52,202 nt of DNA from a phage. Both the position numbers and the translations under genes were made by a program. The DNA is taken from assembly GCA_028524385.1 (NCBI GenBank), contig GCA_028524385.1_3661.2; one strand, written 5' to 3'. How positions within the stretch are numbered: position 1 is the stretch's first letter; the number at the start of each line of letters is the position of its first letter. This document shows positions 10,198-36,013 of the stretch, piece after piece. The notes beneath the pieces were generated by a model. That model saw only the letters and a program-made list of their open reading frames with translations, did not search any database and was not told the DNA's origin.

Positions 10198-10431
10198 TTA
10201 ATCTTCGTAAATCAGGATTTCTGCTTTAGGTTTTCGTGCTTTCAGGTCCAGCTCTATCCAGTGCACCATAGCTGTTTCAAGAAAAACAGCTTGGATGCAT
10301 CCGTCCTCAGCGTGCCCCACCAACATAACGAGATCTTCACCTTCGTCATCTGCATCACGAACATAAAGAATCTCTCCAGATTCAAAGTCTTTCACAACCT
10401 GATTGCTAGATAATTTACGAATTTTTGCCAT
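10198..10431 (-). CDS. small protein, member of tandem paralog family
   Basis: 77 aa; shares N-terminal pattern (MA..., S/G-E/T-V/I-V) with the three following ORFs. Confidence 0.45.
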   Translation of the reverse strand: MAKIRKLSSNQVVKDFESGEILYVRDADDEGEDLVMLVGHAEDGCIQAVFLETAMVHWIELDLKARKPKAEILIYED

Positions 10432-10432
10432 A

Positions 10433-10696
10433 TCAGAAACCCTCTAAAAAGCTCTTGTAGAAAACAATCTCAGTATCCACACCAGTCACAATCTTGTCGT
10501 TCCTGATTTCATCGGTAAGATAGGTGTCAAAACGCAGAACCTGTGTGGTGTTGTCACACATCCACTCAGCTGTGACCATTGCGAAAATCTTAGCATCTTC
10601 ATTATCTGGTGTGAATGTTACCACCTCACCGCACTTAAACTTTTCGATAGGCTGAGTGTTAGCTTTCGGTTCTGCGATAGTGATTTTTGTGGTCAT
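10433..10696 (-). CDS. small protein, tandem paralog
   Basis: 87 aa; motif KCGEVVTF aligns with PCGTVVSC / APGTVVMF of neighbours. Confidence 0.45.
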   Translation of the reverse strand: MTTKITIAEPKANTQPIEKFKCGEVVTFTPDNEDAKIFAMVTAEWMCDNTTQVLRFDTYLTDEIRNDKIVTGVDTEIVFYKSFLEGF

Positions 10697-10959
10697 TATT
10701 CTCCTCCTTCTTTTGAATAGCTTGTCTCTCCAAGGATGGTAATTTTGGTGTCAAGCTCTGTAACTTTCATGTTTGGCGGCAGATCGTACAACTCATTATT
10801 TTCTAAATCGAACCCCCACACACAATGTTCTCCTGTTTTGACAATCATAACTATGTTTTGAATACCGTCTCCGTCGCAACTTACCACGGTCCCACACGGA
10901 AAACTGTCTGCACGCTTTTTGTTCTTCACTTTAGAATTGAATACAATGCTAGTAGCCAT
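10696..10959 (-). CDS. small protein, tandem paralog
   Basis: 87 aa; MAT...KK...GTVV...GFDL...LP...E.D..I.ILGE pattern shared with 10959..11222. Confidence 0.45.
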   Translation of the reverse strand: MATSIVFNSKVKNKKRADSFPCGTVVSCDGDGIQNIVMIVKTGEHCVWGFDLENNELYDLPPNMKVTELDTKITILGETSYSKEGGE

Positions 10960-11222
10960 TATTGTTCCTCCACCATAACTTCGCCAAGAATTTCTATGCA
11001 GGCATCCATTTCTGTAACAACCAAACTGTGAGGTAGTTCTACAAACACCTTTCTGAACAGGTCAAATACCCCAACATATATGTTTGCAGGATGTGATTTT
11101 ACAACAAGTGCTGTATTCACATCCCCAAGTTCATCAACAAACATCACCACAGTGCCTGGAGCTACTGAGGACAGATACTTCTTAGTTTTACGGTTTGATG
11201 CAAATTTTAACTCTGTTGCCAT
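10959..11222 (-). CDS. small protein, tandem paralog
   Basis: 87 aa; same length and conserved residues as 10696..10959; ATGA start/stop overlap. Confidence 0.45.
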   Translation of the reverse strand: MATELKFASNRKTKKYLSSVAPGTVVMFVDELGDVNTALVVKSHPANIYVGVFDLFRKVFVELPHSLVVTEMDACIEILGEVMVEEQ

Positions 11223-11237
11223 AAATAACCTCCTCTC

Positions 11238-12719
11238 TTACTTAGCGTACTCGATTAATTCCACAGTTTTCCCAAAGCTCGGGATATAATTTTTATTATA
11301 CCCTTCGGTTAGAACCCATAAAGTATCGTACTTTTTCCACTTGTTGTCAACAGCCTTTTGTTCAAAGTTATGCTCAAAGTATAGGTCGGTCAGGACGATG
11401 ACATCTTTTGCATTCGGTATGTTGGCATCCAGATACTCGAACACGCAAGCAGCTGTTGTGCCCCATGTTGAGTGGACCTCATAGTTAATCATCTCGTCTA
11501 TGTTGCCGCGAGTGTATACTTTAACCTCTCCAACCTCAGTTGACCAACAGAACATTGTAACCTTAAACTCTTTATACAGATTGCACAATCCGGTGATTTC
11601 ATTGAACATTTTCTTTAAAGTTCTTTGAGAGATCGAGCCAGAAACGTCTAAAGCCACCACAATATCTATAGTGTTTTCCGGATTACGACCAGGAACAATA
11701 ACGTGCTGGTTCTTGTTTATAGCCCCAACTTTTCGCATTGTGCTGGTCAAAGACCCAGATCGGCGACCAGGTTTTCTGTAGGTCAGTTCAGCCTTTCGTT
11801 TAGACAACATGCGTTGCTTAATGATGTCTATATAGTTGATTACAGGCTTACCTCTGTTCTTGACAAACTCACGCACCGCCTCGGGGCAACGGCCTCCGGA
11901 CGCTTGCATTGCTGCCTCCAGCATATCACCAGAGTCCTGCATGGCCTGATCTTTATCAGATTGGCTGATTACAGGTTGTGGCTGATCATACCCCATAGCT
12001 TTTCCAAGATCATCACTGGTGCCACCGTTCCCACTCATGTGATCATCTGTTTGTCGCTTATCACCTTGAGAGTTCTCACCTTTACCGTTCTTACTTTTAC
12101 CGTTATTCTGATCTCTTTGCTTATCAAGAACTGCATAAACGTTCTCAGCAATCCATCCATGAAACTTCATATCGCAGTAGCAGCTGGCTAAGAAGCCAAA
12201 AGGCTTACCTTTCACGAACGTAGTGCTTTTCCCCTTCGGGAAGAAAACACAAGGAGGCTTGCTAAAGTCCACCACAAGTCCTGTGTTGATAACGTGATCA
12301 CAAGCAATATTGAACAGTTCCGGCTCAAAGCTTTTACCACGGACCAGGTGATCACAGATAATATGCCCCACCTCATGCGACAGAAGAAAGGCCACCTCTT
12401 TCACAGATTTGGGGGAATAGAAAACCTCAGCCATCTCAAACTGCTCGTCAGTTAGAGAAGCCTTAAGAATAGCCTTACGTTCATCAGCCAACCCCATAAT
12501 GAACTCAGGACTGTAATAGATGCGTTTATGGTCGGTTGCCATGGTGGAGCACCATGTATGGTTTTCTACGAACTGCAATCCTGACAGCAGTGTGCCATAA
12601 AACGGCAGCTTTTCAAGGAGATACATACGTGCAGCCTGCAACATTCTCAGGGCATCATCTTTTTGTGAGGCAATGATTTCTGAACTTCTGATATCCATTA
12701 AAACTCCAGAAGGGGCCAT
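11238..12719 (-). CDS. vWA-domain protein with HExxH metallopeptidase-like motif
   Basis: HEVGHIICDH (HExxH) in N-terminal half; MIDAS-type DxSxS motif VVALDVSGSIS in C-terminal half; 493 aa. Confidence 0.55.
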   Translation of the reverse strand: MAPSGVLMDIRSSEIIASQKDDALRMLQAARMYLLEKLPFYGTLLSGLQFVENHTWCSTMATDHKRIYYSPEFIMGLADERKAILKASLTDEQFEMAEVFYSPKSVKEVAFLLSHEVGHIICDHLVRGKSFEPELFNIACDHVINTGLVVDFSKPPCVFFPKGKSTTFVKGKPFGFLASCYCDMKFHGWIAENVYAVLDKQRDQNNGKSKNGKGENSQGDKRQTDDHMSGNGGTSDDLGKAMGYDQPQPVISQSDKDQAMQDSGDMLEAAMQASGGRCPEAVREFVKNRGKPVINYIDIIKQRMLSKRKAELTYRKPGRRSGSLTSTMRKVGAINKNQHVIVPGRNPENTIDIVVALDVSGSISQRTLKKMFNEITGLCNLYKEFKVTMFCWSTEVGEVKVYTRGNIDEMINYEVHSTWGTTAACVFEYLDANIPNAKDVIVLTDLYFEHNFEQKAVDNKWKKYDTLWVLTEGYNKNYIPSFGKTVELIEYAK

Positions 12720-12731
12720 TGGCCCCTGTCA

Positions 12732-13775
12732 TTATTTAACGTGTTTGAAAATACCTGCCAACTCGGTCATTGTCATGCGGGTGGTCTTCATAAGATCTGT
12801 CATAGCTTTCTCCATAATTGGAGATACTACCATAAAGTTTCCTTTAGTGAAACCTTTATTCCAGTCGGTCACCAACAGTGGTTTAAGTCCAGCTCCAAGA
12901 CGTTCACCAGTTAAAGCACAGCATTTGCGAATATACGAACTCTTAAATTGGCTGAACGACAGATCAACTTTCATACCTACATCGTAGAACGTTTGACAAT
13001 AGAAAGTGTAAGCTTTGGCAATCTCAACATCATCAGGTAGTGCAGGAACCTCTTCTGTAAGCTCCTCTTCGACCTCCTGAGTCTCTTTTTCCTCTTCATG
13101 CACCTGTTGCGTCATTTCTTCAATCTCTTCTGTGATAGGCTCGTTTACAATGTCGGAAATGTGCTTCTTGGGTGCACGATAAGTAACTTTAGACATCGGT
13201 AGCATATCTTCCTCCTCTTCTTCGTCAAAGAGTGCTAGTTTATCCTCTTCCGTTCCATATTGCAAGATGAAATCTTCAAAAGTATAATCACCTTTCAATT
13301 TCTCCATACGCTCTTCGCTCAGGTGGAGCATCATCTGCTGGACAATTTTTCGATCAGTTTCGTCTTTAATCAAGACTGCAGTCTTTTTATCTACCAGACA
13401 GTCCTTTAGAGAGTTGCATCTCAATCCCACCACACAACAGTTATCAACCGCATAAGGACCTTCATCATCTATCCGCTCCAGAGATGGGTAGAAAGGATTT
13501 CCCAGCCCGTTTTCATCTGTGTGCATGTCAAAAGGTATAAGGGTATAGTCGCATACTCCATCTCCTAAAAGTTTTTTACCAAATAGGAGGTATTCTTCCC
13601 ATGACAGGTCGAACTCTATATCTCGTTTCCGTGCATTATTCTGTTTGCGTCTATATTTTTTGAGCAAGCGCTCTAACTCTTCTGGTGTATAATATTTTTC
13701 AAGATTCATGAGTCGTCTCTCGTGCTCTGTAAGTGAAGAAATCGTATCAATTGTCTCAACAGATGTCAACATCAA
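12732..13775 (-). CDS. HNH-endonuclease-like protein fused to an unrelated C-terminal segment
   Basis: N-terminal ...ARKRDIEFDLSWEEY...CDYT...SLERIDDEGPYAVDNCCVVGLRCNSLK resembles HNH-type homing endonucleases; internal MSKVTYRA at residue 194 is encoded by a 29-bp sequence repeated inverted at 15035. Confidence 0.45.
   Translation of the reverse strand: MMLTSVETIDTISSLTEHERRLMNLEKYYTPEELERLLKKYRRKQNNARKRDIEFDLSWEEYLLFGKKLLGDGVCDYTLIPFDMHTDENGLGNPFYPSLERIDDEGPYAVDNCCVVGLRCNSLKDCLVDKKTAVLIKDETDRKIVQQMMLHLSEERMEKLKGDYTFEDFILQYGTEEDKLALFDEEEEEDMLPMSKVTYRAPKKHISDIVNEPITEEIEEMTQQVHEEEKETQEVEEELTEEVPALPDDVEIAKAYTFYCQTFYDVGMKVDLSFSQFKSSYIRKCCALTGERLGAGLKPLLVTDWNKGFTKGNFMVVSPIMEKAMTDLMKTTRMTMTELAGIFKHVK
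13173..13201. repeat. 29-bp perfect inverted repeat, left copy
   Basis: tgcacgataagtaactttagacatcggta is the exact reverse complement of 15035..15063. Confidence 0.8.
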
Positions 13776-13782
13776 AAACGTG

Positions 13783-13811
13783 TTGACTTTACTCTAACTC
13801 CACAATATAGT
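13783..13811 (+). promoter_or_regulatory. sigma70-type promoter at strand-switch region
   Basis: TTGACT-17 nt-TATAGT, about 40 nt upstream of ATG 13852 (SD aggag). Confidence 0.55.
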
Positions 13812-13851
13812 GCACCCATTCGAAAGAAAACTAACATAGGAGCACTTACTT

Positions 13852-14751
13852 ATGGCAAATCTTAACAGTTTTAGTACGCGGTGGAAACAGGACATAACAA
13901 CCAATCTTTCAGCTGGGGACATCCTTTCTGCAATTTACGAGGCTTTAGATGATAAAGCTACTTCAAAAGCGGTTTGTACCAACCCACTAATTCCTGTAGT
14001 GATGAAGGTTATTGAGCGCAGATTGGTATCTGGGTCTGATAAGTGGACATATTTAGATAATGAAGGACACACCTATTCCAATGGGTACGTCGATATAAAA
14101 GTAGAATACGCGGTATCATACCGCCGGAGCGGTTCTGTAACTTTCAACTTCTCTGGAGGTTTTCGATCTCTGGCTACCTCACCTTTTGTTTCCTCAGAGG
14201 AGAAGTATGAGCTACCATTTCTTTGGATGATGGCTAACGCGACAGGAAAAACCCCCGTTAGCATCCGAGTAAAATACAACTACAACGGATCTAGTAAGAT
14301 CTATGCCGAAAGTGTCTCAGCAAGTTTTTATTTTGTGATGGGGGATGGAATCCTCAAACATATAAAGATGTGCGATATGCATGATGTTATAAATGAAGTG
14401 ACTGATAAGAATGTTCTAGTGAAAGACCTCAACAATTTTTATACACCCGGAGACTATTACGTCAGCCGTCCACTGTGCATCTTTAATGCCGCACACCCTC
14501 TAGGTGAGTATTTGATCGCCAATAGCGATATTGCCAATAACCGCTTCGAGGTAGCAAGAGTTCAGAATGAGGTATTGACATCTTGCAAGAGCGGTGATAA
14601 GTTTACCGAAGAAGAGATGGGTGTTTTAGAAATGATGGGATATAAGTGTAGCCTTTGGGTAGATGAGGTGTTTAATGATTGCATCTATGGACAGGATATT
14701 TACCCATTAAAGAAGTATACTGATACAAGTTTAATTTATGCGAGGGTTTGA
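13852..14751 (+). CDS. hypothetical protein
   Basis: 299-aa ORF, first gene of rightward block, SD aggag. Confidence 0.5.
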   Translation: MANLNSFSTRWKQDITTNLSAGDILSAIYEALDDKATSKAVCTNPLIPVVMKVIERRLVSGSDKWTYLDNEGHTYSNGYVDIKVEYAVSYRRSGSVTFNFSGGFRSLATSPFVSSEEKYELPFLWMMANATGKTPVSIRVKYNYNGSSKIYAESVSASFYFVMGDGILKHIKMCDMHDVINEVTDKNVLVKDLNNFYTPGDYYVSRPLCIFNAAHPLGEYLIANSDIANNRFEVARVQNEVLTSCKSGDKFTEEEMGVLEMMGYKCSLWVDEVFNDCIYGQDIYPLKKYTDTSLIYARV

Positions 14752-14753
14752 CT

Positions 14754-15026
14754 ATGATGAAGGCATGTGGTAATGTATATTACGTCGGTGAACATGTTCA
14801 GGCAGACAGTGTGTGGAAATCTATTAAGTCCACCACTGACGATGCCTTTCTGAGTGGACTATGTTTCCCCAATCCGGGAGACATCCTCCCCCATCCTGGA
14901 GATTTTGTTGTCAACAAGATGGACGGTTATACCGTGTGCCTGATGGTTGAAAAAATCTTTTTAGACACTAGACACAATCACCGTCTTGTGTTAAAATTTC
15001 AAGAATGTAAAATGACAATTGCCTAA
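14754..15026 (+). CDS. hypothetical protein
   Basis: Track ORF 14748..15026; first ATG with SD gaggg at 14754. Confidence 0.4.
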   Translation: MMKACGNVYYVGEHVQADSVWKSIKSTTDDAFLSGLCFPNPGDILPHPGDFVVNKMDGYTVCLMVEKIFLDTRHNHRLVLKFQECKMTIA

Positions 15027-15034
15027 GGAGACCT

Positions 15035-15063
15035 TACCGATGTCTAAAGTTACTTATCGTGCA
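15035..15063. repeat. 29-bp perfect inverted repeat, right copy
   Basis: taccgatgtctaaagttacttatcgtgca; covers start codon and first 8 codons (MSKVTYRA) of gene 15040..15396. Confidence 0.8.
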
Positions 15064-15396
15064 GCTATTTACTGCAATGAACACCCAATCAATAATGATG
15101 GTCACTGCCTTTTTAAAGAAAATCAATTGGGCTGTATTGTCCTCCCTGATGAAGGGGAAGGTTATCTGATTGCATTGACAGGGTTTGAACCTGAGGCTCT
15201 GGAAGCCAATCTGGACTACCTGGTAGAAGAGGGTGCTGCAGACCTGGTTGCCAATGGCCTCTCCATAAGCCTTGACGAAGTAGAGCGCTTCATGGGCAAT
15301 TACCGTGTAGTGCGTGAGTTTACTATCGAGGTGGAAACTCCCGAGTGGAGTAGCACTGAAACTAATGCCGAAGAAAAAGAAGAGGAGGTAGAATAA
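15040..15396 (+). CDS. hypothetical acidic protein
   Basis: ATG 15040 with SD aaggag 9 nt upstream (track ORF starts at upstream TTG 15019); begins MSKVTYRA. Confidence 0.45.
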   Translation: MSKVTYRAAIYCNEHPINNDGHCLFKENQLGCIVLPDEGEGYLIALTGFEPEALEANLDYLVEEGAADLVANGLSISLDEVERFMGNYRVVREFTIEVETPEWSSTETNAEEKEEEVE

Positions 15397-15653
15397 TGAA
15401 AATACAGATCTTGACTAATGCCGAGAAGATGTTTATTGAAGATACACCTTTTGAAGCTGGTGAGCTACAGTTCGTTTATTTTGTTGACTTAGATAAGGTG
15501 TTTCCTGCACTGAATCTAGGTTTGGATGAAGTTCCTCATAAGGTTTTGTGCCAAGTTGTTCGTGCCTTAGCGGCAGAGGGGGAGTTCCACACCCTTCAAG
15601 ATGTCCAGACCTACGGGTATCTTGAACTACAACGAGAAGAAGAGGTGGACTGA
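15396..15653 (+). CDS. hypothetical protein
   Basis: 85-aa ORF, start overlaps upstream stop. Confidence 0.4.
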   Translation: MKIQILTNAEKMFIEDTPFEAGELQFVYFVDLDKVFPALNLGLDEVPHKVLCQVVRALAAEGEFHTLQDVQTYGYLELQREEEVD

Positions 15654-15655
15654 TA

Positions 15656-16036
15656 ATGGCTCAGTGGAAGACAACAGTTGACCTTCATGATCAGTGGTTA
15701 GGACGCATCACTGAAGACGGGAAGCTAGTGGAGTGGGACAATAAGCATGTTAGCGAGTTGGCAAGTATTGTGGCTGGCAAGTTACGCTCCAAGTTCCCTG
15801 AACAACTGGATCCTGATAGTTCAAAGTTCGATCCTGAGTTGGAGGATGTTGTATACTACTTCGATACCGTGGATGACTACGATGCGTGGTTTGCAGCACG
15901 GGAGCTTTACCCACAAGGCTCTGCTATGCGCCAGATGGAAGAAGATTATCCTCCGTGTGAGCAATTCAATAGTGCAATGACTTGCCTCTATGATTGGGCA
16001 GATAAGAACCTTGTCTGGATTCGGACTGCATTTTAG
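15656..16036 (+). CDS. hypothetical protein
   Basis: 126-aa ORF. Confidence 0.4.
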   Translation: MAQWKTTVDLHDQWLGRITEDGKLVEWDNKHVSELASIVAGKLRSKFPEQLDPDSSKFDPELEDVVYYFDTVDDYDAWFAARELYPQGSAMRQMEEDYPPCEQFNSAMTCLYDWADKNLVWIRTAF

Positions 16037-16080
16037 TGGGCAGGAATGGCGGCAAGGATGCTGCTTAAGGAGTAGTAGAG

Positions 16081-16350
16081 ATGTTATACCAGCAATATGA
16101 ACTTCGTGCAGAAAAAGAGTTAAATTTTGACAAAGATATTCACAGATATTATTATGGGAAAGTTAGAGGGCAAGCAAGAAAGTGTACTCCAACACTCTTT
16201 TATGCCAGCAGACGACTAGCGCCAGAAGAGGCAACAGCAGAAAGGGTTGCGTACAACTGGAGAGTCACGTATGATATTGACAGATTCGATGTGATATCTG
16301 TTTTGGAAAACTTTGAAAACACTTACACACAAGTAGAGGACTTTTACTAA
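16081..16350 (+). CDS. hypothetical protein
   Basis: 89-aa ORF; stop overlaps next start (TAATG). Confidence 0.4.
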   Translation: MLYQQYELRAEKELNFDKDIHRYYYGKVRGQARKCTPTLFYASRRLAPEEATAERVAYNWRVTYDIDRFDVISVLENFENTYTQVEDFY

Positions 16351-17534
16351 TGTCAAGAAACGTATTCGAAAGTGGTCAAATCACTGTCCGTGAGTTGCCA
16401 GCTATTATTCAGTTTGCCCAACGTCATAGCCGATCTGTCCTAATTTTGGGACCAATGGGTGTGGGTAAAAGCCAGGTGATGAAGCAGATCGCTGATAATA
16501 TGTTCGGTGAGCGAGATGACAACCTTGTTGACGTGCGACTGTCAGATAAAGATCCTGCCGACTTATCTGGGCTACCTATCCCTGTAGAAGCGGATGGAAC
16601 TACACGTACAGTGTTTGCAATTCCAGAATTTTGGCCTGCGGATCCTGACTGGAGCGGAATTATCTTTCTGGATGAGCTCACTCATGCAGATAACTACCTG
16701 CAAAAGGTTGCAATGCAAATTATGCTTGACCACAAGTGCGGCACCTATGCATTCCCTAAGGGTTCTGTTTTTGTGGCTGCGGGTAACCGTTCTACAGATG
16801 GTGCGGTTCTTTCGGCGCTCGAAGCCCCTCTGGCTAACCGTTTTATCATTGTAGAGGTTACAAGCAATGCAGAGGTGTTTATTGAGGACTACGCATTCCT
16901 CAACGGGGTTCACTCCTCTGTAATTGGGTATCTGAAAAGAGTTCCATCAGCTATTGATAATTATGAGGCTATGGCTGAGATTAATTGTCCATCTTTTGCC
17001 ACACCACGATCTTGGGTTGCTGCATCTGACATCTTGCACGATTTTGACAGCGGTATTATTTCTGACGCTATGGCCCGTGTTCTTCTGCAAGGTGCTATTG
17101 GTCACACTGCAGCGGTAGAGATCTGGACATACCACACCAAGAAACGCAATTTACCGGAAATCGGTCGGATTATGGCAGGTGGCTGCAAAGAATACGTAGG
17201 TCCTAAGCAGCCAGACATTTTGTGGATTCTTGGATCTGAAGGTTGTATCGCTATTCGTAATATGATGGAAAATGCAAGTATCTCAGACGAAGATCTTGTC
17301 AGCTGCGTGGCAAACTTCCTCGATTTCCTTTGGGAAAACTTCAAGGACGAGAACCGAGATTTTGTATTCTCAGTCTTTATGGCGATGATGAAACCTAATG
17401 CCTTAGGAAATGCCTTGCTTATAGGTAAAGGGCGTGACAAGATTGTTGCTCAGCTGATCAAAGCATACCCAAACCTGATGAAGATTGTAAAAGAGTTTGG
17501 TGAAGAGTTTAGCGCCATTTTGGCTAAAGCTTAA
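16350..17534 (+). CDS. AAA+ ATPase, MoxR-like
   Basis: Walker A LILGPMGVGKSQV, Walker B IIFLDELTHA, sensor region VFVAAGNRSTDGAVLSALEAPLANRF typical of MoxR/CbbQ-type AAA+. Confidence 0.6.
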   Translation: MSRNVFESGQITVRELPAIIQFAQRHSRSVLILGPMGVGKSQVMKQIADNMFGERDDNLVDVRLSDKDPADLSGLPIPVEADGTTRTVFAIPEFWPADPDWSGIIFLDELTHADNYLQKVAMQIMLDHKCGTYAFPKGSVFVAAGNRSTDGAVLSALEAPLANRFIIVEVTSNAEVFIEDYAFLNGVHSSVIGYLKRVPSAIDNYEAMAEINCPSFATPRSWVAASDILHDFDSGIISDAMARVLLQGAIGHTAAVEIWTYHTKKRNLPEIGRIMAGGCKEYVGPKQPDILWILGSEGCIAIRNMMENASISDEDLVSCVANFLDFLWENFKDENRDFVFSVFMAMMKPNALGNALLIGKGRDKIVAQLIKAYPNLMKIVKEFGEEFSAILAKA

Positions 17535-17544
17535 GGGGGGTTGT

Positions 17545-17925
17545 ATGGCTAAAGTAGGTAAGCGGGGAAACTACCTGGTGGTATTGACCGAGGAGCCGGA
17601 GAAGGAGTACGAATGCAGCTCCACTTGCGTGATCGATATCCGAGAAAAAGATGTAGATGAAATCTGGTTTAAAATATTGGACGCTTGCGATAGCAGTGAT
17701 TATTTCTTCATTTATGTCAACGATAAGGCTGGATTCTTCCATGACGACGGAGAGTTGCCGTATGAAATCTATGAACTTGTAGAGGCTTGCCATCGTGGAG
17801 ATGCGGAGTTGTTTGGCCTACGGCTGAAAAGCGGTAAATTCTTCTATCAAGATGAGTGCATGAATCTTCATAACTTTGTAGAGGGAACTTGCAACGATGG
17901 AGAGATTTTGGCACACTACGATTAA
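17545..17925 (+). CDS. hypothetical protein
   Basis: ATG 17545 with SD aagggggg (track ORF begins at upstream alternative start 17497). Confidence 0.4.
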   Translation: MAKVGKRGNYLVVLTEEPEKEYECSSTCVIDIREKDVDEIWFKILDACDSSDYFFIYVNDKAGFFHDDGELPYEIYELVEACHRGDAELFGLRLKSGKFFYQDECMNLHNFVEGTCNDGEILAHYD

Positions 17926-17936
17926 TTTCTAAGACC

Positions 17937-17965
17937 TCCCCCGCTTCGGCGGGGATTTTCTATTT
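17937..17965 (+). terminator. intrinsic terminator
   Basis: GC stem with ttcg loop (cccccgc-ttcg-gcggggg) followed by ttttctattt. Confidence 0.6.
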
Positions 17966-17974
17966 GGAGTCATT

Positions 17975-18475
17975 GTGAAAATTAAGATCTTTGCTATTAT
18001 TTTGAGCGCACTTTTATCGCTGCCTGTTGTTGCAGCACCAAAACAAAAAGTATATCATACTTGCAAGCCCTCAGATACTAAGGAAAACATTCTGGCATGC
18101 AATATCTACAGGGAGGCTAGAGGGGATGGCACGATGGGTATGCTGGCATCAGGGTTTGCCACACTAAACAGGAAATCTCACCCCAAATACCCAGACACTA
18201 TAAGAAAGATTGTCTACCAACCTAACCAGTTTTCGTGGACAAACCACGGCAAAACTTTTAAGGTGACAGAAAAAGATTCATGGGATCACGCTAAAAGTCT
18301 TGCAAAGATGCTTCTAAAGGTCTATAATAACAACCATGTTGCATACATGGCTATGGACATAACAGGTGGAGCAACACACTACCATACAACCAAAGTACGA
18401 CCGAAATGGGCAAAAAAGATGCAGAGGACAGCTCAATTCGGGAGTCATATCTACTACAAGGAGCGCAATAAATGA
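17975..18475 (+). CDS. secreted cell-wall hydrolase, SleB/CwlJ-like
   Basis: N-terminal signal peptide MKIKIFAIILSALLSLPVVAAP; ...CNIYREARGDG...NQFSWTNHGK... matches SleB-type hydrolase pattern; GTG start with SD ggag. Confidence 0.5.
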   Translation: MKIKIFAIILSALLSLPVVAAPKQKVYHTCKPSDTKENILACNIYREARGDGTMGMLASGFATLNRKSHPKYPDTIRKIVYQPNQFSWTNHGKTFKVTEKDSWDHAKSLAKMLLKVYNNNHVAYMAMDITGGATHYHTTKVRPKWAKKMQRTAQFGSHIYYKERNK

Positions 18476-20454
18476 TTGTAAACAGTAATGAAACTAAAGC
18501 AGTACTAACCGGAAATATGGAGGTCACCAGGGGCTCAATTTCTCTGAACAAAGAGACTTTTGGGCTAATCATTAAAGGGATTTACGAAGATAAGGTGCTG
18601 GCAAGCTGCCGTGAACCAATCTTCAATGCTGTGGACTCCCATGTTGAGTCTGGACGGGGTGATGTACCGATCATCATTCACTCTCCTACAGACCTTGAAC
18701 CATACTTCTTTGTGCAGGACGTTGGATTGGGCATGTCGGAAGAGATGGTCCGCAACACTTTCATGAACCTCGGGGAGTCAACCAAGCGCAACAGCAACGC
18801 TCTGGTAGGTAATAAAGGTGTAGGTTCAAAGGCCCCGTTCAGCATGGTGGACACTTTCGATGTGATCAGTGTGCACAACGGTGTTGAAAGCACATATCTG
18901 TTGTTCTTGGATCAGGGTATCCCAAACGTTACCAAGATCCGCGAGCGAAAGACTGAAGAGCACAACGGGGTAAAAGTTCAGTTCCATGTTAAGAAAGAGC
19001 ATGTTCTGAAATATCGCACTGCTATTGCGTCATGCCTACGCTATGCAAAGTTTCCGTTTACCGTTACCGACCCTATGACCAGTAAGATGCTGGAAGGTGA
19101 CAAGGTTGAGGCGCAGTATCGCTACGAGAAAGATGGTTGGAAAATGACTATCCTGAAAGGTTATACCAGCTCTGATGAGAGCCGTGTGGTGATGGGACAC
19201 CAACCTTACCGCTCTAAGTTTCTGGAAACATTGACAGACTACCCTGCAATCTGTGTAGAGATCCCTATCGGGGATTGCAATATTAACCCTGGGCGCGAAT
19301 GGACCATAGAGGGGCACGACGATGGTGGATTCCAGGATCGCCTGGAGGCCTTTGTCAAAGAAGGTATACGTCTTCGTGGGGCAGAAGTTGTTGCGGAATT
19401 GGAGACAGCAAAAACATCCTCAGAAGCACGTGAGATGATGAAGAACAGTGGAGTGTTCGGACACATCTTCGGCAAAAACTTTATGTGGAACCGTTGGGAA
19501 GAAACAGGGCTTGGCGACTTAGGCGATTGTGAAATTTTCGCTGGCGGCTTAAATAAAGGCCGCATAGGCTATGCTCGTTACGGAAAGTCGGAGTTCTTAC
19601 GAGGTGTATACCTTGTATTTAACGACGGAGACGGCAAATATAACCGAAATAAGTGTAACTACTTAAGCGAGATCACCGGACGCAACGTTTTCTATTGCCG
19701 TAACACGGATCTGATGGAAGAGTTTAAAGAAGCGGCACACCACCCGTTCTTTGCAGATACGGTCAAATTGTTATCAGAGCTCCCTCGCCGTCCTGTAAAG
19801 AAAGGTGAAACAAAAACTCACTATGAGCCAGGGTATTGGGTTAAAAAACTTGAGAAAGATGGTTACTTCCGTCGTGAGCGTATTACTAAGGCAGAGTTCA
19901 AGAAGATTAAGCACTGCATTCCTTATGAGGGTGATATCCAACGTGGAAGTTGTTGGCTGGGACAGCTAAGTAACATCTACCAGCAAAATTATGACCGTGT
20001 GCGTGCGGCACTCCAGATTCCTGAAGGGGAAGATCTGTACCTGGTATCAGAATCTCGTCTGCTTTGGACTGATCCTGATTGCCAGTATGTTACAGAGAAA
20101 AATGTGGAACATTTGTTGAAAGAGGATGCCTGGAAATTCTTACTGACTCGCGCAGCAAATGAAACTTCATATGACAGCCTGTATAGACAATTAGGGAAAA
20201 TTATCCCCATGCAAGATTTTGGAAATTATCGGCCACATTTCCACAAGTGGGAAGGTAACACCGCGTGGAAGCACAGTGAGCTAAATCATCGTGCCAAAAT
20301 CTTAATCGCCAACCGAGTCAAGTGCGGGAAGGCCTATATTGCAAGATTGGAAAAGAAATATCCACTTTTGAAGCATGTGGGCTTGAAATATTGGGACACT
20401 CCTGCTATGATTGAATACCGTGAACTGATCGACGCAAAGAATAACACCAAATAA
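18472..20454 (+). CDS. GHKL-superfamily ATPase (Hsp90/MORC-like ATP-binding fold), function unknown
   Basis: N-box IFNAVDS, G1 box VQDVGLGMS, G2-like GNKGVGSKAPFSMVD in N-terminal 120 aa; 660 aa. Confidence 0.45.
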   Translation: MIVNSNETKAVLTGNMEVTRGSISLNKETFGLIIKGIYEDKVLASCREPIFNAVDSHVESGRGDVPIIIHSPTDLEPYFFVQDVGLGMSEEMVRNTFMNLGESTKRNSNALVGNKGVGSKAPFSMVDTFDVISVHNGVESTYLLFLDQGIPNVTKIRERKTEEHNGVKVQFHVKKEHVLKYRTAIASCLRYAKFPFTVTDPMTSKMLEGDKVEAQYRYEKDGWKMTILKGYTSSDESRVVMGHQPYRSKFLETLTDYPAICVEIPIGDCNINPGREWTIEGHDDGGFQDRLEAFVKEGIRLRGAEVVAELETAKTSSEAREMMKNSGVFGHIFGKNFMWNRWEETGLGDLGDCEIFAGGLNKGRIGYARYGKSEFLRGVYLVFNDGDGKYNRNKCNYLSEITGRNVFYCRNTDLMEEFKEAAHHPFFADTVKLLSELPRRPVKKGETKTHYEPGYWVKKLEKDGYFRRERITKAEFKKIKHCIPYEGDIQRGSCWLGQLSNIYQQNYDRVRAALQIPEGEDLYLVSESRLLWTDPDCQYVTEKNVEHLLKEDAWKFLLTRAANETSYDSLYRQLGKIIPMQDFGNYRPHFHKWEGNTAWKHSELNHRAKILIANRVKCGKAYIARLEKKYPLLKHVGLKYWDTPAMIEYRELIDAKNNTK

Positions 20455-20464
20455 GGAGACAGCT

Positions 20465-21670
20465 ATGATTTTCATCTACGAACATTTCAAAACTCGTAAA
20501 GAAGCACGCGACCGCCGTGCAGAACTTGAGAAGAAGGGTTTCACATGTGCTATTGAGAAAGGTACTACAACATGGACACTGGCAGTAGGTGCCCCAGAGC
20601 TGTTTGATCCTGACCGAGACAGTGTCTGCTATACCCGTGAGGATTTTGAAACCCGCGAAGAGGCACGTTTATTCCGCTACGGACTGGAAGACAACGGTAA
20701 GTACGCCATGATCTTAGATTCAGGTGAAGGTTCCGTTAAACGTTGGGGCGTGGTATACCCACTGTGTGTTGTTCACGGTGTGGGGTTCACTGGGGTAGCA
20801 ATCAAGTCAGAAGAACCTTTAGTAGAAGTCAAAGATCCGGTGCTGGAAGTGGTGAGCAGTGTGTCTCAGCAACAGTCTCGAAGCATCGAGCCTTTGGTAG
20901 TTATTTGCGGGGAACTCCTCCAGATCACCTGCAACGAAGGCATTTTTGAAATTCGCCGCAGCGAAAGTGAGGAAGTTTACCAGAAAGTCTTCGACCATAT
21001 TTCTGTTCAGGAATATGATGAGGCAATTGGTGAAATCCTTGTCTGGCTGGAACGCAAGAATGAGTTCACCACACTTGCAGACAACCTGATCATGAAAGAT
21101 GGTAAGCTCTACTACTACGGTGTAGAGATGCGATCCACCATTGCAAAGAAAATTGAGGAAGATTATGTAGATGGAACACTGGACGACCGATATGTTAAAT
21201 TCCTTGTCCGTCTGCTACGCAACCCGTCTGCAAAATCTGTGAACATGCTCTACGATTTCATGCAGGCTAATGACATCCAGGTTGCAGAAGATGGTCGAAT
21301 CATTTGCTATAAGGGGGTTCAGTTTAACGGGAGCAGGTGGGTGGATTGGCACAGCGGTAAAGTTCCACAATACCAGGGTGCTTTTGTGTCCATGCCTCGT
21401 AACTTTGTAGAAGATGATCCGGAAGCTGCGTGTTCTTATGGCCTGCACTGCGCCAGCAAAGAGTATGCAGCGGGCTATGGCACTGTAATGATGGTTATGG
21501 TTGACCCTGCGGATGTGGTTAGTGTGCCATACCAACACAACAGTGCTAAGTGCCGTGCATGCCGCTACGAAATCGTAGCAGCACCGGAATCACGCAAAGA
21601 TGGCGATCCGATTGAATACGTAGTTGACCGTGATGGTAACATCATCGACATTATCTACGAGGAGGCGTAA
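20465..21670 (+). CDS. hypothetical protein with N-terminal tandem repeats
   Basis: 401 aa; two about 35-aa repeats (TRKEARDRRAELEKKGF... / TREEARLFRYGLEDNGK...) at N-terminus; SD aaggag. Confidence 0.45.
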   Translation: MIFIYEHFKTRKEARDRRAELEKKGFTCAIEKGTTTWTLAVGAPELFDPDRDSVCYTREDFETREEARLFRYGLEDNGKYAMILDSGEGSVKRWGVVYPLCVVHGVGFTGVAIKSEEPLVEVKDPVLEVVSSVSQQQSRSIEPLVVICGELLQITCNEGIFEIRRSESEEVYQKVFDHISVQEYDEAIGEILVWLERKNEFTTLADNLIMKDGKLYYYGVEMRSTIAKKIEEDYVDGTLDDRYVKFLVRLLRNPSAKSVNMLYDFMQANDIQVAEDGRIICYKGVQFNGSRWVDWHSGKVPQYQGAFVSMPRNFVEDDPEAACSYGLHCASKEYAAGYGTVMMVMVDPADVVSVPYQHNSAKCRACRYEIVAAPESRKDGDPIEYVVDRDGNIIDIIYEEA

Positions 21671-32154: not shown

Positions 32155-32345
32155 AAGTAAAGTATCTTGCTGAAGGTATGAATAGGTATTTTACCCTTGG
32201 TGAAGAATATTGGCCCTTTACAAACAACGGCGATGTCTACGTGAAAGATAATTTCGGCACGCCGTGGTTTCTGCACTCTAATGGGCTGGGATACTCTATT
32301 TACTGCGGTGCAGTGAACAACACAACTCTTGCAGAGTTCGTTTAG
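32151..32345 (+). CDS. small protein, KDD-G-WY paralog family
   Basis: 64 aa; ...YVKDNFGTPWFLHSNGLGYSIYCG... Confidence 0.4.
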   Translation: MKVKYLAEGMNRYFTLGEEYWPFTNNGDVYVKDNFGTPWFLHSNGLGYSIYCGAVNNTTLAEFV

Positions 32346-32355
32346 AGGAGGTAGG

Positions 32356-32727
32356 ATGCTAGTAAAAGGTACCCACACAGTCAAACAACGTATTGAAGTT
32401 GAGATTGATGATTGTGAGCTGAAGCATATTTTACGGTCATGCTCCAACGTTTTGCTCCTTAGTATTCTTCAGGAGCGAGCGGAGAACGAGTTCTTAAATG
32501 CATTGGCAGGCCGTCCAGGTGACTTTTGTGTGCGTAAGCGTGGTGACAACAAGTCATGGTTGTGGGAAATCGATGCCGACTGGGATTACCACAAAAATGA
32601 GGGCATAGATGAGCCTATTCGTGAACTGACGGACAAAGAGATTCAGATGTACAATGAAGTTTGTCATTGGGCAACACGCCAACAAATTTACCTAGACCCT
32701 GTGTGGCTGATTGAAAATAGCCATTGA
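32356..32727 (+). CDS. hypothetical protein
   Basis: ATG 32356 with SD ggagg (track ORF starts earlier at 32329). Confidence 0.4.
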   Translation: MLVKGTHTVKQRIEVEIDDCELKHILRSCSNVLLLSILQERAENEFLNALAGRPGDFCVRKRGDNKSWLWEIDADWDYHKNEGIDEPIRELTDKEIQMYNEVCHWATRQQIYLDPVWLIENSH

Positions 32728-32752
32728 CAAGAAGTAAGATTAGATATAAGAT
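32724..32752 (+). promoter_or_regulatory. sigma70-type promoter
   Basis: TTGACA-17 nt-TAAGAT, upstream of gene 32804. Confidence 0.5.
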
Positions 32753-32803
32753 GCTTCACACAAACAAAGCGTTGATTTTTAAATAACTAAGGAGACTGCC
32801 AAG

Positions 32804-33058
32804 ATGAAAATTACTTTGAAGCCGGAATGCGTTGCAAATGACCGAGCTTTTAAAGATTGCACAGTCGGTGCAATCTATGAAGCAGAGTTTTGTGAGAACC
32901 CTCTGGTAAAAGCCCTTCTGGAAGAAGGGGCCCCTTTATCACAAGAAGAGATTGATGAGCTGGAAAACTCAGCACAGTGCCTTACCTTTAAAGATGATGA
33001 AGGAGACTCTGTCTGGTGCACTGTTAATGAAGTAGTTTTTGTAAAACCTGAACATTAA
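32804..33058 (+). CDS. small protein, paralog of 33122..33394
   Basis: KPECVANDRAFKDCT...LTFKDDEGDSVWCTV aligns with KPDYLEKDSAFRDCT...ATIKDDQGDYVCCTT of next gene. Confidence 0.45.
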   Translation: MKITLKPECVANDRAFKDCTVGAIYEAEFCENPLVKALLEEGAPLSQEEIDELENSAQCLTFKDDEGDSVWCTVNEVVFVKPEH

Positions 33059-33061
33059 TAC

Positions 33062-33090
33062 TTGACAACAGTGATAGGGCCTAATATAAT
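33062..33090 (+). promoter_or_regulatory. sigma70-type promoter with palindrome around the -10 element
   Basis: TTGACA-17 nt-TATAAT; 9-bp arms gatagggcc / ggccctatc (33073-33081, 33091-33099) embrace the -10 hexamer. Confidence 0.55.
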
Positions 33091-33121
33091 GGCCCTATCA
33101 AAACGAAAGGGGACCACAGCA

Positions 33122-33394
33122 ATGACCAAACAATATCAACGAATTAAAGCCAAGGTTAAGCCAGACTATCTGGAGAAAGACTCTGCTTTTCGGGACTGCA
33201 CAGCCGACAAAGTTTACACAGGGGCCGTCCTGTTGAACGATGAACTTGAAGTAGATATTCTGGGTAAAGAGGCCACTATTAAGGACGACCAAGGCGATTA
33301 TGTTTGCTGCACCACACGTGAGCTAGAAATCTTAGAATACTTCGGTGAAATCTTCACCTCTCTTGATGATTACTTAGATGATGAGGAAGCGTGA
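33122..33394 (+). CDS. small protein, paralog of 32804..33058
   Basis: ATG 33122 with SD aagggg downstream of promoter 33062 (track ORF starts at the TTG of the -35 box). Confidence 0.45.
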   Translation: MTKQYQRIKAKVKPDYLEKDSAFRDCTADKVYTGAVLLNDELEVDILGKEATIKDDQGDYVCCTTRELEILEYFGEIFTSLDDYLDDEEA

Positions 33395-33783
33395 TGAAAA
33401 ATATTTGGGATATTGATATCTTTGAAGCCTCTAAGCTTGATGGTGCTGATGGAGTGATTATGGTATCTGATGGCAAGGCAACACTAACTTCCGGAGATAT
33501 CATCTATGCCTTGGACGAGCTGGCGCTTCTGAAATCTACCGGTAACACTCTAGAGGAGCGTCTTCAAGGCTTCGCCTTCAAAGAAGGTACAAATACAGCC
33601 ATGATGTGCACCACACGGACAGTTCAGATGGGTAACGGTGTCTATATGATTATTGCTGTGTGTCCTAAATTCAGCAACGTCAACAAAGATGATGCTGACG
33701 CGGTAAACGATGTGGTTGTTCTCTTCGTGGGTGACGCTATGGCAGATCTGATGAATGCGGGAGAAGCAGCAAATGAAGACTGA
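33391..33783 (+). CDS. hypothetical protein
   Basis: 130-aa ORF, ATGA overlap with upstream stop. Confidence 0.4.
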   Translation: MMKNIWDIDIFEASKLDGADGVIMVSDGKATLTSGDIIYALDELALLKSTGNTLEERLQGFAFKEGTNTAMMCTTRTVQMGNGVYMIIAVCPKFSNVNKDDADAVNDVVVLFVGDAMADLMNAGEAANED

Positions 33784-34075
33784 AAACATCACCCCAGCAG
33801 GGTTCTTAAAAGTATACCGTGAACTGCTGTATACTACAGAGGACAGTGTTCTAGAGTATCCAGAATATCTCTTGCTGTATAAGTATCTGCAGGAGGCTGG
33901 TGAAAATCTGCCAGTTAGTGCAGAAGGCGGTCCGAACTGGGTATACAGCGCATGGAGAAAGGTTGACATTCTCCCAGACCCAGGCAAAGATATGGTAGTT
34001 TGGCAGCTTATCAACAACATCGGGATTCCAATCTTTGATGAAGCTGTTAAAATCTATTTTGAACTTGACGATTAA
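33773..34075 (+). CDS. hypothetical protein
   Basis: Second in-frame ATG (33773) has SD gggagaag; overlaps upstream stop. Confidence 0.4.
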   Translation: MKTENITPAGFLKVYRELLYTTEDSVLEYPEYLLLYKYLQEAGENLPVSAEGGPNWVYSAWRKVDILPDPGKDMVVWQLINNIGIPIFDEAVKIYFELDD

Positions 34076-34092
34076 TATCAGGAGACCTTAAG

Positions 34093-34338
34093 ATGACTGA
34101 AGTAGTTGCTCGCGCAGGACAGAAAGTACGTTGTGTTGAAGTAGGTTTTGGTGGCAAAGGGTGTCAAAACTTGACTCAAGGTAAGGAATACGCTGTTATC
34201 TCTGGTGGTGGCGACGAAAGTATTGTGTTCGAGGGCCACATCCTGGATGCTGAAAACTTTGAAATCTTTGACGACGATGGGGATCCGATCACCTGCCTGC
34301 TGGACGGGAATTGGGGAACTTTCGAAGTGATTGGCTAA
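34093..34338 (+). CDS. small Gly-rich hypothetical protein
   Basis: 81-aa ORF with SD aggag. Confidence 0.45.
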   Translation: MTEVVARAGQKVRCVEVGFGGKGCQNLTQGKEYAVISGGGDESIVFEGHILDAENFEIFDDDGDPITCLLDGNWGTFEVIG

Positions 34339-34421
34339 CAAATACCTATTGTAATTTACAGAAGGGGATGCTAAAATAGTGTCTCCTTCTATGTTGTTCA
34401 AATAAAATCGGAGATTCCATA

Positions 34422-34787
34422 ATGGAACAAATGAACGATCAAGCGTCGGTTGCGATGAACGAGCAAGAACAACCTCAAGAATTTTTCTTAGGGTTAAGTA
34501 AAGATCAAGTGTCTCTTTTGCTAGTGCTTTCTTCTTTCATGGGAAGACTTCAGGAGCTCACACAACAACCGGAGGCTGAACAATTATTTCAGGCCCTGCG
34601 CGAAGAAGAAAAATATCGTCGTTTGGACTATGCCTTAGGTTGGGTAGCTCAACAACGAGATATGTTGATGGCCCTCTCTGGGACCACAAGTTTTGCAATG
34701 GGCCTGTTGGCTCAAGTTCAGGACAAATTAATTCAAGCAGGGTTTGCACACACGGCAAACACTAACGAAGAACAAGGAGACAAATAA
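34422..34787 (+). CDS. hypothetical protein
   Basis: 121-aa ORF, Q/E-rich. Confidence 0.4.
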   Translation: MEQMNDQASVAMNEQEQPQEFFLGLSKDQVSLLLVLSSFMGRLQELTQQPEAEQLFQALREEEKYRRLDYALGWVAQQRDMLMALSGTTSFAMGLLAQVQDKLIQAGFAHTANTNEEQGDK

Positions 34788-36013
34788 TGAGCGTTATTCA
34801 ACAATTCGCTAACCCGATGAATCCGCGTGAAACTGTTTTACTGGCTCACGGTATGATCAAGCGTGTTAGCATCAAACCTATTAAAGGGGCTGATCCTGCA
34901 ACAGGTATTAAAACCACCGTGTGGCAAGGTAAGAAAATTGAATCCAGCCACACCATCTCTTTACTGATTTCTGAACTGGATTCCTCTGATAACCTGCTTC
35001 AAGGTGGCGAAGAAGTCTGGATCAGCATGGGTGATAAGCTGCTTAAACCGGGTCATCAAGACTCTGTCTCTGTTAAGATTGATGACAAGTGGGAAACCGT
35101 AACACCAGGATGGATCGTAAATATCCCTTTGAAGGCAAACGAGCATAACGGTAAGACCTATTACAAAGGCTCACTGGCTAAGATGGTCAAGCTGGGTGCA
35201 GGAGAGGCTCCAGCAGCGACTCAGCAGCAAAAACAGCAACAAGGTGCACAATCACAAGGTCAGAAGCAGAAACCTCAGCAGAATGCCAATCAGGACGTTT
35301 TACGCATCTATGGCGATGTGACTCAGATTGTTGGCAACGTGGTTACTGTTAATGACCACAAGATCGGCGAAGGTGCTATGGTTGTCACGGATGAGCAGCT
35401 TAAAGACCTGGTGGTAGGTGGTCGTGTTGCAGCCATTGTTGACAAAGCCACCGGAAACATTATCAGTGGTTTCAAAGCCTATCCACCTAAGGCAGAGAAC
35501 GGCACCCAAGGTTCTGGTGGCAAGCGTAAATCCTCTTACGACCCTATCGGTGTGGAGACGGGGCATAGCATCAATGCGTTGCAGATCATCCTGGATCGCG
35601 GGTTTAAGGTAGACGACCCACTAGGCGTGGCTAAAACACTGCACGTAGTCACCATTGAGCTTAAGAAAGAGTATGCTCAAGCCACCAACCGAACTGAAGA
35701 TGAAGTAGGTGCCAGTGTCGGTAATGCGGTGTTGAACGCTTGTCGCCGTATTAACAAGAAAACGAAAGTTGATGATTTTGCAGCGGCAATTACTGCAGAA
35801 GCAAAAGATGTCTTGACTAATCTGGCTGAGCCGTTGTACGATTGGATCAAGAACGGTTCTGGGTCCACTGACCATCAAGAACCCCAAGCTGCCAAACAGG
35901 AAGCAGCTCCACAGCAAAACACTGTAGACGCTCCTCCTGTAAATGATGAGGAAGATGACCCAATGGATCAGAATCCAGCACAGTACTCCTTTGATGATGA
36001 CATCCCTTTTTAA
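34787..36013 (+). CDS. single-stranded-DNA-binding-like protein with SSB-type acidic C-terminal tip
   Basis: C-terminus ...SFDDDIPF matches the bacterial SSB C-terminal tip (DDDIPF); internal Q-rich low-complexity linker; placed in replication region. OB fold not verified. Confidence 0.45.
   Translation: MSVIQQFANPMNPRETVLLAHGMIKRVSIKPIKGADPATGIKTTVWQGKKIESSHTISLLISELDSSDNLLQGGEEVWISMGDKLLKPGHQDSVSVKIDDKWETVTPGWIVNIPLKANEHNGKTYYKGSLAKMVKLGAGEAPAATQQQKQQQGAQSQGQKQKPQQNANQDVLRIYGDVTQIVGNVVTVNDHKIGEGAMVVTDEQLKDLVVGGRVAAIVDKATGNIISGFKAYPPKAENGTQGSGGKRKSSYDPIGVETGHSINALQIILDRGFKVDDPLGVAKTLHVVTIELKKEYAQATNRTEDEVGASVGNAVLNACRRINKKTKVDDFAAAITAEAKDVLTNLAEPLYDWIKNGSGSTDHQEPQAAKQEAAPQQNTVDAPPVNDEEDDPMDQNPAQYSFDDDIPF

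Follow-up and report, generated by a model that had tools for sequence, protein, structure and literature searches.

The phage contig GCA_028524385.1_3661.2 (GenBank assembly GCA_028524385.1), of which a stretch of 52,202 nucleotides was analyzed (hereafter the window), encodes a MoxR-class AAA+ ATPase and a protein with a von Willebrand factor A (vWA) domain on opposite strands, which raises the question whether these two proteins still work together. An earlier note on this DNA had offered two readings, namely a split chaperone-like pair that is expressed from divergent operons, or an independent role of the vWA protein, which carries an additional HExxH metallopeptidase-like motif. As detailed below, comparative genomics supports the split pair well, through adjacency of the two genes elsewhere, their co-occurrence, conserved motifs in both proteins, and back-to-back promoters, and this reading is better supported than an independent role. 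The two genes probably encode two subunits of one machine, a MoxR-class hexamer and its zincin-vWA cofactor, whereby their separation would reflect a rearrangement and not a functional divorce.

The 6.3-kb region that harbors both genes is that of an rV5-like Vequintavirus. It is 99.2% identical to Escherichia phage LL12 and shares at least 92% identity with 115 near-full-length matches, every one of which is an rV5-like Vequintavirus genome. Both open reading frames (ORFs) are present on opposite strands as described earlier, with a start-to-start distance of 3.63 kb. The vWA protein had also been called the only one of its kind, and a Pfam scan of 67 window ORFs, which cover part of the ~136-kb genome, indeed yielded this single vWA match and no second vWA domain. 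The pair as such is already known and annotated, as gp4/gp12 in rV5, as gp24/gp25 in N4, and as MoxR plus MPTase-vWA in jumbo phages. In LL12 the region is labeled “putative metallopeptidase,” “anti-sigma factor,” “putative alpha 1-3 fucosyltransferase,” five hypothetical proteins, and “MoxR ATPase,” with a cell-wall hydrolase and rIIA coming next, while the original rV5 annotation lists gp12 as “CHP, DUF2201_N,” gp11 as an Srd homologue, and gp4 as MoxR-ATPase.

The vWA gene, which is the homologue of rV5 gp12, encodes a zincin-like metallopeptidase domain (DUF2201_N) followed by a vWA domain (DUF2201) with a metal ion-dependent adhesion site (MIDAS). Its open frame extends from 11238 to 12719 on the minus strand (493 aa). 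The start had previously been placed at 12719; however, ATG 12698 is probably the more likely start, since a GGAG ribosome binding site (RBS), the invariant M8, and the LL12 annotation all point there, so that the gene would span 11238-12698 (-). Both Pfam domains score above the gathering cut-off and occur in N- to C-terminal order as PF13203 (DUF2201_N, putative metallopeptidase; residues 95-321, 99.7 bits against a cut-off of 23.2, E 3e-28) and PF09967 (DUF2201, VWA-like; residues 353-488, 43.7 bits against a cut-off of 26.4, E 3.6e-11). The HExxH motif that had been noticed before is present as HEVGH at residues 115-119. Alignment of 31 homologues, with identities down to 21%, revealed that H115, E116, H119, H124, A139, and D141 of the zincin part are invariant, as are the MIDAS columns D358-x-S360-G361-S362, G420/T421, and T444/D445, together with G483. 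A profile of the family matches integrin I-domains via the MIDAS strand, and it matches the minigluzincin MJ1213 and M48 peptidases weakly over the HExxH region. These data suggest that DUF2201_N constitutes a putative metallopeptidase with an intact zinc-binding motif. A comparison with the PADLOC models for anti-phage defence gave no match for the vWA protein.

The ATPase gene, homologous to rV5 gp4, is located at 16350-17534 (+) and encodes 394 aa with a NorQ/CbbQ-like fold and a C-terminal helical extension. Its classification required homologues, a profile, and a fold search, because searches with the single sequence gave P-loop-level matches only: every Pfam AAA model remained below its cut-off (AAA_5 with 16.7 versus 22 bits), no NCBIfam family matched, and the Protein Data Bank (PDB) search only hit the P-loops of Clp and p97. 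These weak matches are what would speak for a generic AAA+ protein that is not MoxR at all and that merely happens to lie near a vWA gene. This explanation is highly improbable, and an AAA+ protein unrelated to MoxR is refuted by five lines of evidence. Of 5,711 homologues, the ones matching at E~1e-44, with about 34% identity across 85% of the length, contain PF07726 AAA_3 plus PF07728 AAA_5. The family profile has its best match to the AAA modules of Midasin (1e-10). In a Foldseek search of the PDB with an AlphaFold2 (AF2) model (pLDDT, the predicted local distance difference test score, of 82.5), the top 18 neighbors are NorQ and CbbQ2 (E 1e-8 to 9e-7), with RFC, MCM, and Clp following after. 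The model also contains a beta-hairpin after helix 2 (75-81/84-90), corresponding to the helix-2 insert, in whose region a conserved D61-x-R63-L64...D71...G74 motif falls, as well as short strands at 128-134 ahead of beta-4, corresponding to the pre-sensor-1 hairpin. Finally, the gene-order statistics given below contradict a coincidental proximity. Thus, transitive homology, profile, and fold search support the assignment of the protein as a divergent MoxR-class AAA+ ATPase. The Walker A motif GPMGVGKS (G37, G39, K40, S41), the Walker B residues D108-E109, and N146, R147, R164, and R220 are invariant, both in 30 homologues and in a closer set. Against the PADLOC models the ATPase gave P-loop-level matches only (E>0.002) and no homology to a defence system.

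In order to find out how the two genes are arranged elsewhere, loci from related phages and from bacteria were compared. That a MoxR gene and its vWA partner typically lie side by side, as had been stated at the outset, is borne out by both surveys. In gammaproteobacterial genomes (80 loci, of which 3 are truncated), 77/77 evaluable loci have the ATPase gene upstream of the vWA gene on the same strand, with a median gap of 245 bp and with 72 pairs within 600 bp. A search of IMG/VR seeded with the vWA protein yielded 71 loci, namely 19 divergent and 49 same-strand loci, two truncated contigs, and one locus without an ATPase gene within 10 kb. In the 49 same-strand loci the ATPase gene is located upstream of the vWA gene, less than 1 kb away in 32 cases and at 1.5-8.5 kb in 17. 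Co-occurrence within 10 kb is found at 68/69 evaluable vWA-seeded and at 31/32 ATPase-seeded loci, whereby the sole exception in the ATPase-seeded survey is the same contig as in the vWA-seeded one. GenBank record coordinates place the pair side by side in jumbo phages, N4-like podoviruses, and Vibrio phages, and the canonical adjacent ATPase-vWA arrangement is also present in Sulfurivermis, in phage-like contigs, and in marine phages. Of 50,697 phage records, 639 gave a tblastn match to the vWA/zincin protein and 813 to the ATPase.

The divergent arrangement is confined to one clade in this survey. The pair is divergent in every Vequintavirus/Seunavirus-like contig of the survey (19/19), with gaps of 3.5-5.3 kb and vWA identities of 39-98%, and Seunavirus 4MG has the split arrangement as well, so that a peculiarity of the isolate at hand was rejected. 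In Certrevirus, the closest outgroup from the same subfamily (33-37% identity), the genes are adjacent and co-oriented with a gap of 79-573 bp. There the pair lies about 2.2 kb downstream of that phage's own strand switch and represents the only recognizable homology to this part of the window. Since this outgroup and the other lineages have the genes adjacent and co-oriented, the split is, judging from gene order, a lineage-specific derived rearrangement across the shared promoter region in the Vequintavirus/Seunavirus-like clade. Across loci, the ATPase and the vWA protein agree in their best-matching query clades, and the motifs of both proteins are invariant within the split clade. In 17 environmental phage contigs (L035, L039, L045-L050, L052-L055, L062, L064, L065, L067, L072), with an ATPase of about 53% identity to P0119, both genes are co-oriented with 1.5-8.5 kb of inserted genes in between; adjacency was therefore lost more than once.

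The earlier note had named a strand-switch promoter and an “HNH-endonuclease fusion” as what separates the two genes. The promoter part holds: the strand-switch gap of 142 bp (13710-13851) contains two divergent sigma70-like sites, and the rV5 paper had already reported this region as a bidirectional promoter. The leftward site at 13741-13769 (-), which precedes the Srd-like gene and then the vWA gene, reads TTGACA-17-TACGAT with a TG extension (10/12 in the scan) and corresponds to P11 annotated in rV5, whereby its -35 hexamer is conserved in relatives. The rightward site at 13783-13811 (+) reads TTGACT-17-TATAGT (10/12). Their -35 hexamers stand back to back, 13 bp apart, and this TGTCAA...TTGAY arrangement is kept at the switch across genera, including relatives in which vWA identity has dropped to 44-62%. 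Further downstream, the scan of the region gave its highest-scoring sigma70-like match at 16127-16155 (+; TTGACA-17-TATTAT, 11/12), a candidate for a dedicated ATPase promoter. It lies within an 89-aa ORF, 223 bp upstream of the MoxR start, and occurs at the same -223 position in the close relatives L079-L081, while Certrevirus and contig L085 have comparable 10-11/12 sites at -60/-75 relative to the ATPase gene.

The endonuclease part of that description could not be upheld. The gene between the pair, 12732-13775 in its longest form, is called “HNH endonuclease” in PHROGs and in many GenBank records but “anti-sigma factor” (Srd-like) in rV5 and LL12. The endonuclease identity is unsupported, as it is a PHROG family label only and as no HNH or other Pfam domain was detected in the protein even at E<=5. 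The gene is the homologue of rV5 gp11 (phrog_3118, 8e-113), with weaker PHROG matches to the Srd/sigma70-decoy and endonuclease VII families, and it opens the leftward operon. Since TTG 13775 would place the start ahead of the predicted promoter, ATG 13709 is probably the more likely one, which gives a gene at 12732-13709 (-). A comparison between the two halves of the protein gave no significant similarity (E 1.3), so an internal duplication was not detected. A perfect 7-bp GC-rich palindromic hairpin (AGGGGCC-AWT-GGCCCCT, 12711-12727), found in the scan for terminator-like sequences, fills most of the 33-bp gap from the Srd-like stop codon to the vWA RBS and could be an RNA stabilizer or attenuator between the two genes.

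The split would be explained most simply if an ancestor of the Vequintavirus/Seunavirus-like clade had moved the vWA gene to the other side of the bidirectional promoter. The vWA gene would now be second in the leftward operon behind the Srd-like gene, while the ATPase gene would have stayed in the rightward operon with a promoter-like site of its own. With one gene in each operon of a bidirectional promoter, both would be transcribed early in infection by the host RNA polymerase, and their products would assemble in trans. By analogy to NorQ/NorD, CbbQ/CbbO, RavA/ViaA, and Midasin, the vWA domain would dock on the ATPase ring, the MIDAS would capture an acidic residue of a target protein, and ATP hydrolysis would remodel cofactor and target; the mechanism of MoxR-vWA pairs has been described (PMC7159879), and the cryo-electron microscopy work on NorQD reports a finger-in-pore feature (PMC13036017). 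The invariant HExxH domain suggests that remodeling is coupled to proteolytic processing, whereby the zincin domain would then probably cleave or process the captured target, which might be a host protein, a phage replication or transcription protein, or a virion protein.

Among the closest known systems, the MoxR plus MPTase-vWA pair that Iyer, Anantharaman, Krishnan, Burroughs, and Aravind described from group 2.2 jumbo phages (Viruses 2021, PMC7824862) has the same architecture, in that a MoxR ATPase is combined with a vWA protein whose N-terminal part is a zincin-like domain. In tblastn searches against jumbo phages, the vWA protein is 27-29% identical (E 1e-33 to 1e-41) and the ATPase 23-25% (E~1e-26 to 1e-31). 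There the genes are adjacent and co-oriented (in OU509535, ATPase at 188804-190096 and vWA at 190184-191455), whereas in the window they are divergent and 3.6 kb apart. The N4 pair gp24 (AAA+ ATPase)/gp25, which belongs to the core genes of the Schitoviridae (PMC7650795), is homologous too (vWA 20-23% identity, E 1e-7 to 1e-17; ATPase 23-30%), with N4-type vWA matches annotated as “gp25” or “N4 gp25-like” and with the ATPase gene preceding the vWA gene in a non-structural region of the genome. It differs from the window pair in that the genes are adjacent on the same strand, far more divergent, and encode shorter proteins. Bacterial “predicted metal-dependent peptidases” with DUF2201_N/DUF2201 and an AAA_5 ATPase, as found in Sulfurivermis fontis, Sedimenticola, and Thiohalomonadaceae, share Pfam architecture and partner with the window pair, but are chromosomal, only 22-25% identical, and encoded by adjacent genes (median gap 245 bp). 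In the NorQ/NorD and CbbQ/CbbO systems of the CGN subfamily, the N-terminal regions of NorD and CbbO are not HExxH domains and the targets are metallo-enzymes (cNOR, Rubisco); compared with NorQ and CbbQ, the window ATPase has an extra helical C-terminal region of ~120 residues. The Acidianus two-tailed virus, an archaeal virus, encodes a MoxR (p618)-vWA (p892) tail-development system, which is reported to act on viral proteins and comprises a pair without a peptidase domain. A literature search found neither a functional study of phage DUF2201 or N4 gp25-type proteins nor a transcriptome of a Vequintavirus, and the CRISPRi-ART papers, in which the rV5-like phage EdH4 is used, contain no data on the vWA or ATPase genes.

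Between the strand switch and the ATPase cluster lie five rightward genes (13852-16036, +), which are homologous to rV5 gp10-gp6 and belong to PHROGs of unknown function. No Pfam domain was found in any of them, with gp10 also checked at E<=5, and they are mostly not conserved outside Vequintavirus: Seunavirus 4MG has a clear homologue only for the gene at 15656-16036 and a marginal local match for 13852-14751, while Certrevirus has no homologue of any of the five. The 89-aa ORF (16081-16350, +; phrog_13164, a PHROGs family labeled “ATPase”) has no Pfam domain at E<=5. Its stop codon and the MoxR start codon share bases (TAATG), which makes translational coupling of the two probable. The ATPase gene is followed by a 126-aa gene (17545-17925, +), a homologue of rV5 gp3 that is T5.083-like according to the LL12 annotation and rV5 Table S3 and likewise has no Pfam domain at E<=5, and the cluster is closed by an intrinsic-terminator-like hairpin detected in the scan (CCCCGC-TTCG-GCGGGG plus T-run, 17939-17954, +). 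Just downstream of this cluster and of the cell-wall hydrolase gene (17975-18475), rIIA- and rIIB-like genes are located at 18472-21670 (+), confirming the early or host-interaction character of the rightward arm. On the other side of the locus, the vWA gene is directly followed by three abutting 87-aa ORFs (10959-11222, 10696-10959, and 10433-10696) and a 77-aa ORF (10198-10431), all on the minus strand, which resemble diverged tandem paralogues with 15-38% identity and a common M-x-T...G-x-V-V...I-L pattern.

Several observations weigh against two subunits of one machine, and some of them would fit better if the relocated vWA/zincin protein worked alone, for instance as a metalloprotease or as a MIDAS adaptor expressed from the Srd-like operon, while the ATPase used other partners such as the 89-aa or the T5.083-like protein. 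The two genes belong to different operons, and the start of the ATPase gene overlaps the 89-aa ORF, with gp3 lying in the same terminator-bounded cluster. The ATPase gene is also 2.5 kb and six genes away from the bidirectional promoter; the two genes may therefore differ in dosage and timing. The region as a whole shows no enrichment of promoter-like sites (19 found versus 15.7 expected from shuffled sequences), which are consensus matches only. Since the site count does not exceed the shuffled expectation, the case for the promoters is based on position and conservation. In the rV5 record itself (DQ832317, 7756-9217, corresponding to 11238-12698 of the window) HEVGH is replaced by HGVGH, which changes the catalytic Glu to Gly, and a 1-nt insertion frameshifts the vWA domain after G420-T421, so that the gene is annotated as ORF12 plus ORF13, while the MoxR protein of this record is intact and 100% identical to that of the window. 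These defects represent either a sequencing error or a natural knock-out, with the cofactor being dispensable in the laboratory; if they are real, the ATPase can persist without its vWA partner. In one IMG/VR contig, 3300045988_163358 (L014/L085), which is the exception of both IMG/VR surveys, a distance of at least 35 kb separates the two genes, which is due either to a real large rearrangement or to a chimeric metagenome assembly. On this contig a block of Srd-like and vWA genes adjoins homologues of the window genes at 32329-36013, far from the ATPase-rIIA-rIIB block. Together with the 17 marine loci at 1.5-8.5 kb, this contig indicates that tight linkage is not required, which fits an action in trans yet weakens linkage as an argument. 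Furthermore, the peptidase activity of DUF2201_N is putative, and interaction, expression, and activity of both proteins are predicted from sequence and gene context. Nevertheless, separate roles appear unlikely in view of the near-perfect co-occurrence at more than 100 viral and 77 bacterial loci, the joint retention of both genes in a split clade that has diverged by about 60% in sequence, and the invariant MIDAS and Walker motifs. The proposed alternative partners do not follow the pair either, since a homologue of the 89-aa ORF was detected in neither Seunavirus nor Certrevirus, and none of gp3 at the loci examined there, though the pair persists in both.

It might also be that the two proteins do act together but late in infection, as a virion-assembly chaperone with a processing protease, in which case the divergent layout would be irrelevant to timing. 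This role was proposed by Iyer et al. (2021) for the homologous jumbo-phage pair, and it is reported to have been shown for the MoxR-vWA pair of the Acidianus two-tailed virus. Compared with the jumbo-phage pair, for which the authors proposed virion assembly, the context in the window looks early, and we regard a late function as quite improbable. The genes are located among rIIA/rIIB, Srd-like, and small early-type genes with sigma70-like promoters, away from the structural module. A T4-late-like TATAAATA motif was looked for near the vWA and ATPase genes and is absent near either, and in other phages the pair is found among nucleotide-metabolism and replication genes. In addition, neither protein carries a mass-spectrometry evidence flag in rV5 Table S3, whereby chaperones need not be present in virions. 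Taken together, the rIIA/B, Srd-like, and small acidic ORF neighbors, the sigma70-like promoters, and the replication and nucleotide-metabolism neighbors in other phages argue more for an early or middle role than for virion assembly.

The pair of a MoxR-class ATPase and a zincin-vWA cofactor is widespread across phage records and core in the Schitoviridae, and its rearrangement in the Vequintavirus/Seunavirus-like clade is an ordinary clade-specific evolutionary event that reveals no new mechanism. What the split in rV5-like phages does show is that the pair can do without co-translation from a single mRNA. These phages provide a tractable Escherichia coli system with many close isolates, and the rV5 reference record may hold a natural knock-out of the cofactor gene. 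More tentatively, the pair may constitute an early ATP-driven targeting protease or remodeler that is aimed at host proteins for takeover or counter-defence in several phage families (Vequintavirinae, Schitoviridae, and jumbo phages), unlike the virion-assembly chaperone that had been suggested before. If this were true, a vWA cofactor that shares its operon with an Srd-like sigma decoy would couple the cofactor to the takeover of host transcription.

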